Part shown: positions 511 to 14,397 of the stretch, piece after piece | How positions within the stretch are numbered: position 1 is the stretch's first letter | How the letters are laid out: each line of letters begins with the position of its first letter | From: a virus | Taxonomy: Duplodnaviria > Heunggongvirae > Uroviricota > Caudoviricetes | Virus record (IMG/VR): IMGVR_UViG_2802429220_000008 | Span: 1 to 18,046 of that record | DNA length: 18,046 bases | Strand: one strand, 5' to 3' | Made by a program: the position numbers and the translations under genes | Notes under the pieces: generated by a model | Database searches by the model: none | What the model was told of the DNA's origin: nothing | What the model saw: only the letters and a program-made list of their open reading frames with translations

Positions 511-699
511 TTATCCAGCCGGTGTTTCGTTATTCAGGTACAGCGATACTTTTTTTAGCGGGAGGCATTCACCAGAAATTTTTTGCTCGTCTCTTGCCTG
601 GAGGCAGGATTCTTTACTTGCATAAATTCCGGTAATCACATTCTGTGATTCACCCGTTATAAGAAAAACCGTCATCATCAGTGCAAATGCTGAAGTCAT
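511..699 (-). CDS. Small protein with hydrophobic N-terminus, YdfD-like (Qin prophage lysis protein family)
   Basis: 62 aa MTSAFALMMTVFLITGE...EQKISGECLP...ETPAG; ATGA start/stop overlap with upstream dicB-like gene; resemblance to YdfD is from memory. Confidence 0.55.
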   Translation of the reverse strand: MTSAFALMMTVFLITGESQNVITGIYASKESCLQARDEQKISGECLPLKKVSLYLNNETPAG

Positions 700-884
700 T
701 GACGTTCTCCGAAAATACCAAGTTCAAGAAGAGCAATTCGGGAAAGTATGGAATTATCATTGAGCAGATAAGGCTCATATTTCCTCATATTAATGGCATC
801 TTCAGTAAACTCCCGGTTACTGAGCAGAACACCAATATCAAAACAACCTTCAGACGTATTAACGTTTGGTAATAACGTTTCCAT
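696..884 (-). CDS. dicB: DicB-like cell division inhibitor (MinC-dependent FtsZ-ring inhibitor)
   Basis: 62 aa METLLPNVNTSEGCFDIGV...FTEDAINMRK matches remembered DicB N-terminus (MKTLLPNVNTSEGCFEIGV...); GAGGA 8 nt upstream of ATG; same length as DicB. Confidence 0.75.
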   Translation of the reverse strand: METLLPNVNTSEGCFDIGVLLSNREFTEDAINMRKYEPYLLNDNSILSRIALLELGIFGERQ

Positions 885-1062
885 TATCGCGTCCTCAACA
901 ATGAATTTTGTGATGCAGTGCCTGGTGCCTCCAGGTGACGTTAACCAGTTAACAATTAACGCCGGATTAGTTGATGCTCGTTACGCCCGTAAAATACCGC
1001 CTTACTGCTTTAACTGTTCCGCGTGCGCATAGCCGCATTCACCGCATCACAAAATTCACTTT

Positions 1063-1110
1063 AAAAAGGGCGGATATCCGTTTCCGCCGAATCACCAGAA
1101 AAGTGATAAC
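1063..1110 (-). ncRNA. dicF: Candidate DicF-like sRNA ending at an intrinsic terminator about 180 nt upstream of dicB
   Basis: Minus strand reads ttttctggtgattcggcggaaacggatatccgcccttttt: 6-bp stem ggcgga/tccgcc, 8-nt loop, U-tract; the downstream stretch aaagtgaattttgtgatgcggtgaatgcgg matches my memory of the dicF-dicB spacer. 5' end not determinable from sequence. Confidence 0.35.
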
Positions 1111-1403
1111 AGAGGGCGTTGCAGCGGGGTTGTCACTTAAGCGTATGGTCAACCTGACAACCCGGTGTCCTCAGCGGGGAAGGAATAACCCCGCCATACT
1201 TACCGCCGCGCCATTTCGCGGATTGCCACAACCGGAAGCGCACGGTCGAATTAAATTTAACGACTACCTACAGAGAGACGAACTTCGCCGTGCGCTTTCG
1301 CGTTATGCCCTGACTTTTCAGGGATATATCCTTTTCAGTAAACTGTCAGTGCCGGATTCTTATCCGTGTCCGGCGCACGCACTCTACCTCACCTGTGAAT
1401 AAA

Positions 1404-1790
1404 TTAATGATTAATTGATATTTTGTTGTTTGATTCAACTTTCCCATCGGATGTGTGATGCTTTAAATCACAGGAATTAATACTGCTTGCTGTAAAATGA
1501 TTTTCAAGGGGAGCTATTCGAATCCCTTTCTTTTTCATTAACAAGCCAAATCCTTTATTAATGATGTCCATTAATTCCAGGAAGTATTTTTCATGTAAAT
1601 CCTGGTTATCAGAGAGCTGCTTCTCTTCGCACAGACCGATAAAGGCACGACGCACGTTACCGGATATAGTATCGATGGTTTCTTTTTCTACAGTACTCAG
1701 GTCAAGAGTCGCCAGTTGAGAGCGAACCACATTCGATGCCATTTCCTGGAATGGTACTGGTAAATCTTTAAATTCCATCGTCAACCTCAT
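1404..1790 (-). CDS. Hypothetical early-operon protein (possibly an intact YdfB/YdfC-like gene)
   Basis: 128-aa ORF with ATGA overlap to the upstream YdfA-like gene; position between ydfA-like and dicF-like elements as in the Qin dicB operon. Confidence 0.6.
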   Translation of the reverse strand: MRLTMEFKDLPVPFQEMASNVVRSQLATLDLSTVEKETIDTISGNVRRAFIGLCEEKQLSDNQDLHEKYFLELMDIINKGFGLLMKKKGIRIAPLENHFTASSINSCDLKHHTSDGKVESNNKISINH

Positions 1791-1942
1791 CAGTCAGTGT
1801 TTCTGGTTAACCAGCGACGCTCGCCAGCTTCAGTTTTAAACGTTTTGCTTCTGGTATACGTCATCGCGGTGAACGTACCGTCCTGGTTGGGGAACACACC
1901 ACATACCAGAGATTCGTTGTTGCCAAGATCGATAGTATCCAT
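1790..1942 (-). CDS. YdfA-like small protein (DUF1391-type)
   Basis: 50 aa MDTIDLGNNESLVCGVFPNQDGTFTAMTYTRSKTFKTEAGERRWLTRNTD; GAGG 5 nt upstream of internal ATG at 1942 (track ORF 1790..2020 starts further upstream without an RBS). Confidence 0.6.
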   Translation of the reverse strand: MDTIDLGNNESLVCGVFPNQDGTFTAMTYTRSKTFKTEAGERRWLTRNTD

Positions 1943-2118
1943 GCTGACCTCATTTCCCCTTAACGCCGGGGTAGCGGAACAAAAACCTGCTGCATAGTTA
2001 AAGTTGAACCCTGCCGTCATGTTCTTACGCCTCGGGCTGGCTACTTAACCCCTGACCACTGCCGGGTAACTCGAAGTATTTCCCTGCGTTCTGTGGGGCG
2101 TGGTGGGGTAGTGGAAAT

Positions 2119-2148
2119 AATCTACAATTAAAAACTGTTTTGTGTCAA
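2119..2148 (-). promoter_or_regulatory. Candidate leftward early promoter (PL-like) embedded in the operator palindrome
   Basis: On minus strand: -35 TTGACA (2148..2143), 18-bp spacer, -10 TAGATT (2124..2119); faces the ydfA-like/dicB operon. Confidence 0.4.
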
Positions 2149-2160
2149 CAGTTTTTAATT
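2126..2160. promoter_or_regulatory. Operator palindrome (OL-like): aattaaaaactgtt-ttgtgtc-aacagtttttaatt
   Basis: Perfect 14-bp inverted arms around a 7-bp centre; same half-site (AAAAACTGT-N9-ACAGTTTTT) as the palindrome at 3161-3195 on the other side of the repressor operon. Confidence 0.65.
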
Positions 2161-2171
2161 GTTGTATTGGG

Positions 2172-2197
2172 CAAAAAAACTCCCTCGAATGAGGGAG
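2172..2197 (-). terminator. Intrinsic terminator ending the repressor-antitoxin-toxin operon
   Basis: Stem ctccctc/gagggag with loop gaat; on the minus strand it is followed by a 7-8 nt U-tract; lies 18 bp past the toxin stop. Confidence 0.6.
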
Positions 2198-2214
2198 TGT
2201 GAAAATTGTTCAGT

Positions 2215-2502
2215 TCAGATAGGGAAGGGAAATTGTCGGCGGGCATGCACAATATTTGCAATTTCAATGCTTGAAGCTGCTACTCGGTACAAAACGATAT
2301 AATTAGGGTGAACCACAATTTCCCGCAAACCGGATACTCGATCACTTGGCGGATATAGATATGGATGCTCAGAGAGGGCTAAAACAGACGTTTCAATCCG
2401 TATTTTTAGTCTGCGTGCTGCAGGAATATTTTCCTTAGCAATATAGGCTACGATCTGACGCAAATCATCGCGAGCAGATGGTAGCCACAAAATGGGTAAC
2501 AT
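2215..2502 (-). CDS. parE: ParE/RelE-superfamily type II toxin (ParE-like)
   Basis: 95 aa with typical ParE features (LWLPSARDDL, GLREIVVHPNYIVLYRV, IANIVHARR); TAATG stop/start overlap with the upstream antitoxin gene. Confidence 0.85.
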   Translation of the reverse strand: MLPILWLPSARDDLRQIVAYIAKENIPAARRLKIRIETSVLALSEHPYLYPPSDRVSGLREIVVHPNYIVLYRVAASSIEIANIVHARRQFPFPI

Positions 2503-2693
2503 TACTCGCTCCTGTTAGTTACAGCAATTTGAGCAATAAGATTCTCCATTTCAGCCATTACCTCATCATGTGGAATTGAGGGACGAGGGTCAGCAAGGCT
2601 TGACGCCACTTTAGCGCGTAACCATTCGTTGTAACTGTTTTCTTGTTCGGTAGTTTCGAATTCTGAAACTATCGGAGAAAGGGCTGTACTCAT
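2502..2693 (-). CDS. Small antitoxin paired with ParE (PaaA-like, 63 aa)
   Basis: 63-aa acidic ORF immediately upstream of and overlapping the ParE toxin; size and context match PaaA-type antitoxins of the paaR-paaA-parE three-component modules (from memory). Confidence 0.75.
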   Translation of the reverse strand: MSTALSPIVSEFETTEQENSYNEWLRAKVASSLADPRPSIPHDEVMAEMENLIAQIAVTNRSE

Positions 2694-2720
2694 GGCATAA
2701 CTCCTCTTCTTGTACTGTGG

Positions 2721-3122
2721 TCACGCCCGGCGGCTTTTTTGTGCCGCCAACCACCGGGCAATGGTTTCTTCCATTGATTTTTTCTTGTCTTTGATTTCTT
2801 GAAGCATTTTTTCTTGGTCTTCCTCTGGAAACGCACTAAAAGCCTGGAGCAGTTCGCGTTGACGAGGACCAATTTTCATCGTGTCAGGGGTGAAAATTTG
2901 CTCCCCCTCTTCAGGAGGCAATAAAAACCAATGCAATGGATGCCCTGTAACCTCAACCAGTTTATCCAAACTTGAGGCTTTAGGTGTAGCCTTACCGCTG
3001 ACCCATTGTTGAACAGTTTGTTGTGTCACACCAATTCTACGGGCAAGCTCAGCCTGGCTCCATCCAGTTTCCTGAAGAAGCTTGCTGATTCTGTACATAG
3101 ATACTTCTAGGGCGTTCATCAT
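2721..3122 (-). CDS. Prophage repressor, HTH_XRE type without a LexA-like peptidase domain (DicA/PaaR-like)
   Basis: 133 aa; N-terminal HTH (ISKLLQETGWSQAELARRIGVTQQTVQQWVSG), C-terminal SPRQRELLQAFSAFPEEDQEKM similar in style to DicA; divergent from the cro-like gene; operators on both sides. Confidence 0.8.
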   Translation of the reverse strand: MMNALEVSMYRISKLLQETGWSQAELARRIGVTQQTVQQWVSGKATPKASSLDKLVEVTGHPLHWFLLPPEEGEQIFTPDTMKIGPRQRELLQAFSAFPEEDQEKMLQEIKDKKKSMEETIARWLAAQKSRRA

Positions 3123-3231: not shown

Positions 3232-3504
3232 ATGCTAGATAGCACTCGCGAAAAAATTAGGCAGAAATACACTCAAGCTGAAATAGGTCGTTATATGGGG
3301 GTCGCTCAACAGACAGTTTGGCAATGGTTTAGCTTTGACGTTCCCCCAAAGCAGGTAATTCCGTTATGTCAGCTAATGAAGTGGGAAGTTACCCCGCATG
3401 AAATTCGCCCTGATATTTATCCTAACCCAACCGACGGTTTACCTGTTGGATTCAAGGTTAACACATCAAATGCACCGGAGTTGATTCATGAAAATCAAGC
3501 ATGA
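3232..3504 (+). CDS. Cro-like regulator, YdaS family
   Basis: 90 aa; HTH-like AEIGRYMGVAQQTVWQWF and the YdaS-type motif TPHEIRPDIYPNP; AGGAGAG RBS; divergent from repressor. Confidence 0.75.
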   Translation: MLDSTREKIRQKYTQAEIGRYMGVAQQTVWQWFSFDVPPKQVIPLCQLMKWEVTPHEIRPDIYPNPTDGLPVGFKVNTSNAPELIHENQA

Positions 3505-3913
3505 ACACATCCGCATGGCGATGAATGCCTGGGCGCGTCCTGATGGCGAAAAAGTTCCAGTAGCTGGAATAACCCAGGCTTATTTTGAGTTGGGTATGAC
3601 GTTTCCTGAACTGTATGACGACAGCCATCCGGAAGCCCTGTCTCGTAATACCCAGAAAATTTTCCGCTGGGTAGAAAAAGACACCCCTGATGCGGTTAAA
3701 AAAATTCAGGCGTTGTTACCGGCGATCGAAAAAGCAATGCCGCCTCCACTGGTGGCCCGAATGCGCAGCCACAGTTCGGAATATCACCGGGAGCTTGTCG
3801 AGCGACGGGAGCGCCTGGTGAAAGATATCGATGAGTTTGTTGCGGCAGCGATCGTGTTGTTCGATCAGATGAATCGTGGTGGTCCGGCGGGAAATGCCGT
3901 GGTGGCGCATTGA
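3488..3913 (+). CDS. YdaT-family protein (CII-like regulator / toxic when derepressed)
   Basis: 141 aa starting MKIKHEHI, which matches my memory of YdaT; follows the YdaS-like gene with a 17-nt overlap. Confidence 0.7.
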   Translation: MKIKHEHIRMAMNAWARPDGEKVPVAGITQAYFELGMTFPELYDDSHPEALSRNTQKIFRWVEKDTPDAVKKIQALLPAIEKAMPPPLVARMRSHSSEYHRELVERRERLVKDIDEFVAAAIVLFDQMNRGGPAGNAVVAH

Positions 3914-7786: not shown

Positions 7787-7849
7787 TGCTGCGGGTGCTT
7801 GAGGCTGTCTGCCTCGGGCATGCCACCGTAAGGCAGACAGAGAAAAGCC

Positions 7850-7915
7850 CCAGTTAACATTACGCGTCCTGCAAGACGCCTAACATTAATCTGAGGCCAA
7901 TTTCATGCTAGACAT
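7850..7915 (-). ncRNA. Predicted Sok-like antisense RNA region (boundaries uncertain)
   Basis: Inferred from hok-family organisation; candidate minus-strand promoter -35 TTGCCT (7948..7943), 17-bp spacer, -10 TAACCT (7925..7920) would give an RNA antisense to the mok start; no clean terminator found. Confidence 0.25.
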
Positions 7916-8117
7916 ATGTAGGTTAGCCTCTTACGCGCCGAAAGGCAAGGAGAAGCAGGCTATGAAGCAGCAAAAGGCGATGTTAATCGCCCTGATCGTC
8001 ATCTGTATCACCGTCATAGTGACGGCACTGGTAACGAGGAAAGACCTCTGCGAGGTACGAATCCGAACCGGCCAGACGGAGGTCGCTGTCTTCACAGCTT
8101 ACGAACCTGAGGAGTAA
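7905..8117 (+). CDS. Mok-like reading frame (in-frame leader encompassing hok)
   Basis: 70-aa ORF MLDICRLASYAPKGKEKQAMKQQK... with GAGG 8 nt upstream; same frame as hok, resembling the arrangement remembered for MokC/HokC. Confidence 0.5.
   Translation: MLDICRLASYAPKGKEKQAMKQQKAMLIALIVICITVIVTALVTRKDLCEVRIRTGQTEVAVFTAYEPEE
7962..8117 (+). CDS. hok: Hok/Gef-family type I toxin (HokD/RelF-like, 51 aa)
   Basis: MKQQKAMLIALIVICITVIVTALVTRKDLCEVRIRTGQTEVAVFTAYEPEE: single TM helix plus conserved TRKDLCE...REVA.F.AYE motif. Confidence 0.9.
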   Translation: MKQQKAMLIALIVICITVIVTALVTRKDLCEVRIRTGQTEVAVFTAYEPEE

Positions 8118-12331: not shown

Positions 12332-12407
12332 GGCCCTTTAGCTCAGTGGTGAGAGCGAGCGACTCATAATCGCCAGGTCGCTGGTTCAAATCCAGCAAGG
12401 GCCACCA
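12332..12407 (+). tRNA. tRNA with CAU anticodon (Met, or Ile2 if lysidine-modified)
   Basis: Manual fold: acceptor ggccctt/aagggcc, D-arm gctc..gagc, anticodon loop cuCAUaa, T-arm gctgg-ttcaaat-ccagc, 3' ACCA. Confidence 0.85.
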
Positions 12408-12487: not shown

Positions 12488-12564
12488 GCGTTGTTAGCTC
12501 AGCCGGACAGAGCAATTGCCTTCTAAGCAATCGGTCACTGGTTCGAATCCAGTACAACGCGCCA
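12488..12564 (+). tRNA. tRNA-Arg (anticodon UCU)
   Basis: Manual fold: acceptor gcgttgt/acaacgc, D-arm gctc..gagc, anticodon stem attgc/gcaat with loop cuUCUaa, T-arm cactg-gttcgaat-ccagt, GCCA end. Confidence 0.85.
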
Positions 12565-13922: not shown

Positions 13923-14156
13923 CCGGGTATCAGTCATGCCCTGAAAATTTTAAATGTCTCACAATTCAGACGGTTGACAGTTGTCTGGTTTGCGGGGAGT
14001 TTGTTAAAAGAAACTGGCATGGTGAATCCCCCTGAGCGGAGGGGCATATCAGCGCAGGTGTTTCTACTCTATCCTTTCTGTGCGGGTTCAGGTGCTGATA
14101 CTGAACTCACCGGGAGGCACCCGGCACCATGCAAGAAAAAGAATGTGCATGCAAAC

Positions 14157-14184
14157 ATGCCCCTCTCCGGAGGGGCATTTTTAT
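14157..14184 (+). terminator. Intrinsic terminator
   Basis: Perfect 9-bp stem atgcccctc/gaggggcat, loop tccg, then ttttat. Confidence 0.6.
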
Positions 14185-14397
14185 GGGTAAAAAATGCCCG
14201 AATGGGTTCGGGCAATAGCATGAGATACTGATATTGTTGTGTTGTTATCGTGTGGATTTTAACCAGGGTTTATCAGGCTGCGCAACTGCGTGGCCTTTTT
14301 TCATTTCTTGGGCTGTAGTCCCCGTGTGTCATTCAGGCTTCCGGACTACAGCCCACTCCATATCTGATTTAATACACTATCCCGGCCGGGAGGAATA

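Follow-up and report, generated by a model that had tools for sequence, protein, structure and literature searches.

The small RNA DicF of E. coli K-12, encoded in the Qin prophage (b1574; Rfam RF00039), arises from a 190-nt precursor processed by RNase III (PMC10448788). It pairs through its 3' region with ftsZ and pykA, and through its 5' end with xylR (Balasubramanian et al. 2016, PMC5069750); the mutant DicF9, which has a functional 5' end, still represses xylR but has lost the repression of ftsZ (PMC5069750). In K-12, overexpression of dicB is toxic (PMC5069750). The EHEC O157:H7 strains Sakai and 86-24 are described, in the passage of PMC7873438 that cites Melson and Kendall 2019, as carrying four dicF copies. 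Like the allele considered below, these EHEC copies reside in early-left operons of lambdoid prophages.

The window, that is, the whole analysed stretch of 18,046 nucleotides (IMG/VR record IMGVR_UViG_2802429220_000008), contains a leftward operon that, as judged from its sequence, is an early-left operon of the ydfA...dicF-dicB-ydfD type from a lambdoid prophage related to Sakai Sp4. Its features, with all coordinates of the dicF-like element on the minus strand, are as follows.

2162..2124, minus strand: inverted repeat with 16-bp arms, a probable operator that encloses the candidate promoter (putative function)
2148..2119, minus strand: candidate operon promoter TTGACA-18-TAGATT, 10 of 12 matches in a consensus scan (putative function)
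1790..2020, minus strand: ydfA-like DUF1391 gene (Pfam PF07151, E 7e-27)
1404..1790, minus strand: 128-aa ORF upstream in the operon, with no Pfam match
1103..1340, minus strand: conserved untranslated leader 5' of the cassette, putatively corresponding, by homology, to the 5' part of the 190-nt RNase III precursor of K-12 DicF
1063..1102, minus strand: short dicF allele (cassette class C), predicted RNA of about 39-40 nt, UUUUCUGGUGAUUCGGCGGAAACGGAUAUCCGCCCUUUUU, from alignment to the K-12 and O157 loci
1092..1102, minus strand: conserved DicF 5' segment ttttctggtga, 10/10 identical to DicF nt 1-10
1069..1088, minus strand: 6-bp hairpin with stem GGCGGA (1088..1083), loop AACGGATA (1082..1075) and stem TCCGCC (1074..1069)
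1063..1067, minus strand: U-tract TTTTT after the C 3' of the stem, read from the sequence and from a terminator scan
852..1070, minus strand: dicF-dicB spacer and dicB leader, holding the hairpin CCTGG-AGGCA-CCAGG at 935..921
696..884, minus strand: dicB, encoding a 62-aa cell-division inhibitor (ORF 884..696; Pfam PF05358)
511..699, minus strand: ydfD-like DUF1482 gene (Pfam PF07358, E 1.5e-14), overlapping the dicB stop codon

The dicB homolog placed in the leftward early operon by the earlier note is real and intact. In a profile search all residues, 1-62 of 62, align to PF05358 (E 6.4e-37, 125.5 bits, with the curated cut-off at 27 bits), and identity to K-12 DicB is 63%, with the N-terminal half conserved and the C-terminal half divergent. 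Strain 2013C-4991 has 100% identical DNA, annotated in RefSeq as "cell division inhibition protein DicB". Family membership suggests that this protein would block FtsZ ring formation in a MinC-dependent manner. The ydfD-like gene has the position of ydfD in Qin, and the ydfA-like gene and the 128-aa ORF (1404..2020) reproduce the upstream operon layout of Sakai prophage Sp4. The promoter and operator region (2119..2162) varies between prophages with different repressors.

The short hairpin and U-tract reported about 180 nt upstream of dicB were located at 1088..1063, with 178 nt measured between the last position of the U-tract (1063) and the dicB ATG (884), and the ttttctggtga segment does precede them, at 1102..1092. 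The 5' end of the short RNA was set by homology to the annotated MG1655 dicF, and in both the MFE and the centroid structures the ttttctggtga segment is predicted to be unpaired. A terminator scan flags the hairpin independently (6 pairs, 5 of them G-C, loop of 8, tail CTTTTTAAAG, with CTTTTT after the stem); the scanned region has 10 terminator-like sites versus 2.8 expected from shuffles. With a G+C-rich stem (5 bp or more), a short loop, and a U-tract immediately 3', the element is a predicted intrinsic terminator. The fold of the hairpin alone, -10.7 kcal/mol, is statistically unexceptional (z = -1.2 versus shuffles). The sequence immediately upstream reads AUCACU|UUUCUGG here versus AUCAAU|UUUCUGG in K-12, and the 5' UUUCUGGUGA adjoins this A/U-rich sequence, a putative RNase E-type site.

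According to the alignment and to the annotations of Qin and related loci, the short allele occupies the orthologous dicF position, in the same place of the operon and between a conserved leader and spacer. The proximal ~165 nt upstream of the element are almost identical to the K-12 dicF locus, and the leader is about 90% identical to long-cassette loci over 238 nt. In the interval between the element and dicB, near-identity to K-12 extends over ~60 nt 3' of the U-tract and over the ~85 nt leading up to the ATG, with a ~40-nt variable stretch between them. Two mechanically called ORFs cross the element, at 1039..1152 on the minus strand (37 aa) and at 971..1402 on the plus strand (143 aa). 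Both are absent from the annotation, and a coding reading was rejected because the cassettes (41, 57, 58, 60, and 61 nt) differ by non-multiples of three inside conserved flanks.

Thus aligned, the element is a truncated dicF allele at the orthologous position. It has in common with K-12 DicF nt 1-10, the stem base GGCGG/CCGCC, and the CUUUUUAAAG tail, but lacks 19 nt of its length: UUC stands in place of the 5-nt linker CGUUU, and 10 unrelated nucleotides, AAACGGAUAU, occupy the place of the 27-nt upper stem-loop (nt 21-47). The hairpin energy is -10.7 versus -15.9 kcal/mol for K-12 DicF. The resemblance to DicF that had been noted therefore holds for the position, the first ten nucleotides, the stem base, and the U-tract, and fails for the linker and the hairpin body; the description of a shorter and divergent RNA body was accurate. 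Likewise, alignment beyond the terminator gave an intermediate result, reaching the 5' ten nucleotides and the terminator base and leaving out the body. A covariance search spoke against DicF: the Rfam model (gathering threshold 48 bits, 76.7 bits for K-12 DicF as positive control) has no match in the window at the gathering threshold, none on 600..1500 at E<=10, and none at E<=1 to the identical allele in E. albertii.

The replaced nucleotides 21-47 are the anti-Shine-Dalgarno part, which in K-12 is predicted, and also indicated by the published genetics, to pair with ftsZ, pykA, and manX. In a windowed pairing scan, used in place of RNAduplex without a length limit, which gave unrealistically long duplexes with large loops, K-12 DicF nt 31-53 pair with ftsZ -28..-7 at -7.9 kcal/mol, and no counterpart of this duplex was found for the short RNA. 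The short allele reaches -5.1 through an 8-bp duplex with three G.U pairs, between about nt 1-9 and the Shine-Dalgarno region, that is common to all alleles. Since DicF9 with its functional 5' end fails on ftsZ, such a weak 5' duplex is evidently insufficient in K-12. For the other targets the scan gave -12.6 versus -3.4 kcal/mol on xylR +10..+19 (K-12 nt 6-15, GGUGACGUUU, of which the short allele keeps GGUGA alone), -12.5 versus -5.8 on pykA -18..0 (nt 26-43), and -12.3 versus +0.4 on manX +33..+52 (nt 35-54). In a control with the K-12 RNA, 20 of 50 mononucleotide shuffles did as well as or better than its ftsZ score of -7.9, since a shuffled RNA has lost the terminator hairpin and is free to pair along its whole length. 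Energies are thus weak evidence, and the case against ftsZ regulation rests on the missing nucleotides. The suggestion of an RNA inhibitor of FtsZ in this prophage, by analogy with Qin, is not supported, given the loss of most ftsZ-pairing nucleotides, the missing RF00039 match, and the DicF9 genetics; pairing with the ftsZ ribosome-binding region, proposed along with it, was not borne out.

Related loci place the short hairpin in a series. The class B cassette GGCGGCAUCUGUUUGCCCAUGAACUGAUGUCCGCC, from IMG/VR contigs and E. albertii, has the flanks, the 5' seed, and the terminator base of the short allele, and the 3' half of its stem, GAUGUCCGCC, resembles GAUAUCCGCC of the short allele; its hairpin, however, is full-length (-17.3 kcal/mol), and it scores 43.5 bits with RF00039, just below 48. 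The kil/kilR leaders of Rac-type and N-carrying lambdoid phages, represented by Rac-SA53 and PhiR5_2, also have the stem base, the U-tract, and the same ~190-nt spacer before a small division-inhibitor gene, and PhiR5_2 has all six base pairs GGCGGA/UCCGCC in common with the short allele. Unlike the short allele, both lack the UUUCUGGUGA 5' seed and precede kil, not dicB, and the Rac-type and PhiR5_2 stems are long and strong (-19 and -23.9 kcal/mol). The RF00039 scores are graded from 43.5 bits in class B through 41.1 in Rac and 29.5 in PhiR5_2 to none for the short allele, whose hairpin is the weakest of the related series (-10.7 versus -15.9 to -23.9 kcal/mol). The short allele looks like a class B or PhiR5_2 type with the upper stem-loop deleted. 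As the same module precedes kil without the DicF seed, its constant parts track the division-inhibitor gene and not the trans-acting seed, which favours a role in cis. These relationships suggest an origin of DicF as the variable part of a terminator hairpin in a conserved leader that also serves kil.

The short allele was found in 442 of 5426 complete E. coli genomes (about 8%), chiefly those of O157:H7 and other STEC, as well as in E. albertii, where it is identical to the allele in the window. Five other loci carry the identical allele with 100% identical flanks, and an intact dicB follows the cassette in 25 of 26 short-cassette loci. The allele-specific sequence is GGAAA(C/U)GGAUAUCC. Variation among the four short alleles is confined to the loop, apart from one exchange of G-C for G.U; the stem is kept in all four and weakened to -8.5 kcal/mol in one, and so little variation cannot reveal selection on the structure. 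The full cassette was not found in 50,697 sequenced phage records. A pattern scan of genome contigs returned 57 stretches, 52 of which were discarded as chance matches without dicF flanks. In the literature covered, to which Melson and Kendall 2019, Faubladier and Bouche 1994, and Murashko and Lin-Chao 2017 did not belong, there is no mention of a short DicF allele.

Sakai Sp4, which resembles the window, carries one reported dicF copy, but with a long cassette; no short copy was found in the two Sakai regions examined, Sp4 (long dicF) and Sp10 (Rac-like, kil). The O157:H7 genomes among the matches listed have three to four long copies, and those among the short-cassette matches listed have one to two short copies. 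The short locus looks like an extra, uncounted dicF-type locus, the long and the short counts being drawn from separate lists and not from the same genome.

We favour, with somewhat better than even confidence, the explanation that this truncated allele works chiefly in cis, as a weak intrinsic terminator and processing hairpin before dicB, and that its RNA has no predicted hold on ftsZ. The hairpin would form the 3' end of the upstream transcript and, as a rather weak terminator, would curb read-through from the early-left promoter into dicB; given the toxicity of the product, a terminator ahead of this gene is likely to matter. A cut by RNase E at the A/U-rich site just 5' of UUUCUGG may free an RNA of ~39 nt, consisting of a 13-nt single-stranded 5' tail, the 6-bp hairpin, and the U-tail, which would not repress ftsZ. 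Division inhibition would then proceed via DicB alone, probably the sole division inhibitor in this prophage. For termination, processing, and RNA accumulation at the short allele we infer by homology what is described for K-12 (PMC10448788). The single-stranded, conserved 5' tail and the persistence of the allele would be explained equally well by a retained function in trans.

Such a function could be that of a retargeted small RNA, a "division-neutral" DicF paralog of ~39 nt that binds Hfq and uses the seed UUUCUGGUGAUUC on targets other than ftsZ; we consider this possible, if rather unlikely. The 5' tail, which is predicted to be unpaired and matches DicF at 10/10 positions, the retained RNase E-type site, a terminator tail identical to that of the Hfq-binding K-12 DicF, and the spread of the allele through STEC and O157:H7, with an identical copy in E. 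albertii, are all consistent with it. In EHEC the candidate target is pchA, on which a DicF site has reportedly been validated by Melson and Kendall in 2019: a duplex of -7.8 to -8.7 kcal/mol is predicted between nt 1-13 of the short RNA and pchA +92..+105, similar to the best sites that long DicF has on this mRNA (-6.6 to -8.9). In the shuffle control, however, such energies lie within the noise; moreover, nt 35-58, the 3' part with which long DicF forms its stronger duplex on pchA, are kept only in part, and the xylR seed is broken. Nor does the window offer a notable site, the complements of the 5' 15 nt of the short RNA being the element itself and two matches with three mismatches, a count that is rare and not exceptional (4 of 200 shuffles reached three matches).

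The hairpin may instead be a neutral deletion remnant that hitch-hikes with dicB and the prophage, with neither termination nor a trans-acting RNA of any consequence, which we regard as unlikely. A fold no better than shuffles, the weakest hairpin of the family, very few alleles, one of them with its stem down to -8.5 kcal/mol, and the missing cassette in sequenced phage records are in line with such decay. Against it, changes in all four alleles are confined to the loop or exchange G-C for G.U, the U-tract and the flanks are intact, and the same module is maintained before kil in viable phages; the toxicity of overexpressed dicB also makes the terminator likely to be relevant. A true DicF equivalent, inhibiting FtsZ synthesis by antisense pairing, is highly improbable, since beyond the orthologous position, the common 5' end and terminator, and the 8-bp duplex of nt 1-8 (-5.1 kcal/mol), which K-12 DicF has as well and which DicF9 marks as insufficient, it would have to act with most of the ftsZ-pairing region (nt 31-53 in the scan; the 3' region in PMC5069750) absent and no match to the Rfam family.

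If the short hairpin acts mainly in cis, as we favour, its weakness may alter the amount of toxic DicB made on induction. Counts of DicF rely on resemblance to the 53-nt RNA of K-12, and the short allele escapes the Rfam model completely. The genomes that carry it, among them most O157:H7 genomes of the matches listed, therefore have a dicF-type locus that is unannotated and, in the literature covered, not discussed. Having dicF is not equal to having an RNA inhibitor of FtsZ. A bolder proposal, which we think quite doubtful, is that the short allele is an expressed, Hfq-dependent RNA of ~39 nt that lacks the ftsZ-, pykA-, and manX-pairing loop, keeps the DicF 5' seed, and, as a division-neutral paralog, governs a regulon of its own, with the virulence regulator pchA as a possible member. 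The dicF-type loci of EHEC O157:H7 would then number five instead of four and fall into two or more functional classes, and a conserved leader common to dicB and kil would carry the DicF hairpin as its hypervariable tip, which defines the targets.

Finally, the spacer at 852..1070 on the minus strand has a similarity to STnc100 (Rfam RF02076) of 31.2 bits (E 8e-5), below the gathering threshold of 47. A true STnc100 lies elsewhere in the window, at 13988..14188 on the plus strand (151.6 bits).

The short element upstream of dicB shares homology with the terminator module of dicF and would work like it, and it falls short of a DicF-type ftsZ antisense RNA in covariance-model score, ftsZ complementarity and xylR seed. 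The parts named in the earlier note, a dicB homolog in the leftward operon and, about 180 nt upstream of it, a hairpin and U-tract following ttttctggtga, are all present, and the hairpin was flagged independently by a terminator scan:

1102..1092 (-), motif ttttctggtga
1088..1069 (-), 6-bp hairpin GGCGGA-AACGGATA-TCCGCC
1067..1063 (-), U-tract TTTTT, 178 nt before the dicB ATG
884..696 (-), dicB, 62 aa, full-length Pfam DicB match (E 6.4e-37)

Taken alone, the folding of the hairpin does not stand out statistically (-10.7 kcal/mol, z = -1.2), and we count it as non-random because of its context, not its fold. The surrounding region (600..1450) was found by megablast in 4729 of 5426 complete E. 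coli genomes, the best match being strain 2013C-4991 (100% identity). When the window is aligned with the K-12 prophage Qin and one O157:H7 locus, about 165 nt 5' of the element are almost invariant, as are two blocks on the 3' side, the first ~60 nt and the ~85 nt leading up to the dicB ATG, which are separated by a variable stretch of ~40 nt. Within the element, the proposed resemblance to K-12 dicF holds for three identical parts: the first ten bases of DicF, nt 1-10 (UUUCUGGUGA), the base of the stem (GGCGG/CCGCC), and the tail (CUUUUUAAAG). The linker reads UUC in place of CGUUU, and AAACGGAUAU takes the place of nt 21-47 (UAUCAGUUUUACUCCGUGACUGCUCUG). The predicted short RNA, with its 5' end placed by homology to MG1655 b1574, has 34 nt to the last C and 39 nt including the U-tail, versus 53 or 58 nt for K-12 DicF counted in the same way. 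The Rfam DicF model RF00039, which assigns 76.7 bits to K-12 DicF, produced no match at its gathering threshold anywhere in the window, none at E<=10 on 901 nt of it, and none at E<=1 on the identical short allele from E. albertii.

The dicB operon and its neighborhood contain the following additional features:

699..511 (-), ydfD-like DUF1482 ORF overlapping the dicB stop codon
1790..1404 (-), 128-aa ORF without a Pfam match, in the place of ydfB and ydfC in Qin
2020..1790 (-), ydfA-like DUF1391 ORF, upstream in the operon
2148..2119 (-), near-consensus candidate promoter TTGACA-18-TAGATT within the inverted repeat 2162..2124 (16-bp arms)
2198..2179 (-), strong terminator from the terminator scan, 3' of parE and directly followed by this promoter
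3122..2215 (-), HTH repressor (133 aa), PaaA2 antitoxin (63 aa), and ParE toxin (95 aa), immediately 5' of the operon promoter
3232..3913 (+), YdaS/YdaT-like genes (by similarity), divergent from the PaaA2/ParE module

The segment 2119..2198 (-) varies among prophages with different repressors, and the promoter at 2148..2119 is probably a repressor-controlled early-left promoter. The ParE protein matches the solved O157:H7 ParE2 structures 5cw7 and 5cze (E 1e-37). DicB is 63% identical to its K-12 counterpart, with the N-terminal 33 residues well conserved and the C-terminal half largely different. Elsewhere in the window, the sok antitoxin RNA of a hok/sok locus (7793..7967 (+)) and two tRNA genes (12332..12404 and 12488..12561 (+)) score above the Rfam gathering thresholds.

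In IMG/VR, the stretches enclosed by the invariant flanks CTCTGTTATCA and AAAGTGAATTTTGTG, collected by pattern scans, fall into three classes of cassettes:

Class A, 60 nt (61 in one allele), K-12 type, dominant
Class B, 57-58 nt, distinct upper stem-loop, 43.5 bits with RF00039 (just below threshold)
Class C, 41 nt, the short type of the window

Class B, found in E. albertii (L173, 4612..4661) and in the IMG/VR loci L009, L088, L129, L132, and L135, has the seed and linker intact and keeps predicted pairing with xylR, but not with ftsZ, pykA, or manX. Four class C alleles were seen; two positions in the loop vary among them, and one stem pair changes from G-C to G.U. With a class-specific 44-nt probe, class C was detected at 528 places in complete E. 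coli genomes, 442 of the 5426 being positive; 43 of these have the allele exactly as in the window, and a one-mismatch allele is typical of O157:H7. The class A probe matches 4011 complete E. coli genomes, with three to four copies per O157:H7 genome among the matches listed. This agrees with the four dicF copies mentioned for strains Sakai and 86-24 in PMC7873438 (citing Melson & Kendall 2019), and thus the short locus looks like a further dicF-type locus outside that count, the short and long cassettes being counted in separate genome listings. Among one-genome-per-species representatives, true dicF-flanked matches are confined to Escherichia; the E. albertii type strain carries the exact window allele and one class B copy. 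Long-type dicF loci do occur in deposited phage genomes, and the full short cassette is present in none of the 50,697.

The cassette reassorts independently of its neighbors, since the exact window DicB protein lies downstream of long cassettes in 21 loci and of short ones in 11, and some long-cassette loci are 99.5% identical to the window in the downstream flank and only ~90% in the upstream flank. The operon surrounding the cassette is intact, as is dicB in 25 of 26 short-cassette loci. Prophage Sp4 of O157:H7 Sakai, an ~89-94% relative of the whole window, has an ORF of the same size and position as the 128-aa ORF (ECs_1063), the same repressor/PaaA2/ParE layout (paaR2-like/paaA2/parE2, ECs_1067-1069) and the ydaS/ydaT layout, but carries a long dicF instead of the short allele.

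Relatives among Rac-type and N-carrying lambdoid phages, Rac-SA53 and PhiR5_2, emerged from partial matches in the phage collection. In both, kil/kilR, which also encodes a small division inhibitor, is preceded by the same base of the stem, the same U-tract, and the same spacer of ~190 nt, and the 5' flank is devoid of UUUCUGGUGA, the DicF 5' seed:

L211 (Rac-SA53), 2457..2511, DicF-like terminator hairpin, RF00039 41.1 bits, sub-threshold
L210 (PhiR5_2), 2462..2511, DicF-like terminator hairpin, RF00039 29.5 bits, sub-threshold

Since the module occurs there without the seed, the constant parts of DicF represent a leader/terminator module preceding division-inhibitor genes, and the hairpin body is the variable part. 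Every one of the short hairpin's six base pairs (GGCGGA/UCCGCC) recurs in the PhiR5_2 hairpin, and the short allele looks like a class B or PhiR5_2-type hairpin that would have lost its upper stem-loop. The dicF-dicB spacer (852..1070 (-)) has a sub-threshold match to STnc100 (31 bits), and the same spacer before kil in Rac-SA53 and PhiR5_2 scores 28-44 bits. Its hairpin at 935..921, CACC(U/G)GGAGGCACC(A/C)GGCAC, is common to the true STnc100 copy of the late region (13988..14188 (+)), with a compensatory U-A to G-C change between the two. The spacer before dicB or kil may be a common cis-regulatory leader. The anti-GcvB sponge AgvB (14189..14250 (-), above the Rfam gathering threshold) is antisense to and abuts the 3' end of the late-region STnc100.

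In K-12, transcription of the operon begins at a promoter 5' of ydfA, there is no internal promoter, and DicF is processed by RNase III to a 190-nt precursor and by RNase E at the 5' end of the 53-nt form (PMC10448788). By homology, the window transcript would start at 2148..2119 and terminate in part at 1067..1063. RNase E prefers the motif RN|WUU, which is retained with a shift of one base (A-C|U-U-U in the window versus A-U|U-U-U in K-12), so that an RNA of ~39-40 nt could be released. The other hairpins of the family are all stronger (class A -15.9, class B -17.3, Rac-SA53 -19, PhiR5_2 -23.9 kcal/mol), and the weakness of this one predicts more read-through into dicB. We lean, with moderate confidence, toward a truncated dicF allele whose main role would be cis termination and 3'-end formation before dicB, division inhibition being left to DicB.

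A short sRNA retargeted to another message is unlikely: nt 1-13 are predicted to pair with pchA at +92..+105, adjoining a region able to mask the pchA ribosome-binding site, but the energy (-7.8 to -8.7 kcal/mol) is at noise level. Somewhat less probable again is a neutral remnant. Bearing on DicF-like activity, a duplex scan (24 x 28-nt windows, ViennaRNA, opening energies added) with K-12 DicF recovered sites in the regions described in the literature.

Predicted duplexes of K-12 DicF and the short allele (kcal/mol)
ftsZ -28..-7, DicF nt 31-53: K-12 -7.9, short allele -5.1
xylR +10..+19, DicF nt 6-15: K-12 -12.6, short allele -3.4
pykA -18..0, DicF nt 26-43: K-12 -12.5, short allele -5.8
manX +33..+52, DicF nt 35-54: K-12 -12.3, short allele +0.4

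The top ftsZ site of the short allele involves nt 1-8, an 8-bp duplex with three G.U pairs that is common to all classes. The K-12 ftsZ score is equaled by 20 of 50 shuffles, so pairing energies alone prove nothing. The DicF 3' region forms base pairs with both ftsZ and pykA, and xylR is bound through the 5' end; the DicF9 mutant still represses xylR through its functional 5' end and no longer represses ftsZ, and the 5' mutant DicF3 keeps ftsZ repression (Balasubramanian et al. 2016, PMC5069750). Given these findings and the absence of the nucleotides that pair with ftsZ, no repression of ftsZ is expected from an RNA reduced to the first ten nucleotides of DicF plus the base of the stem. A DicF that truly inhibits ftsZ, as the earlier note envisaged, is very improbable.

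No description of the short allele was found in the literature searched, which lacked a 1994 survey of prophage sequences resembling dicF and the paper on dicF in EHEC. The truncated allele exposes an annotation blind spot in about 8% of E. coli genomes, O157:H7 included, and a dicF-like locus should not be equated with FtsZ control. The simple picture suggested by these comparisons is that DicF evolved from a terminator hairpin.
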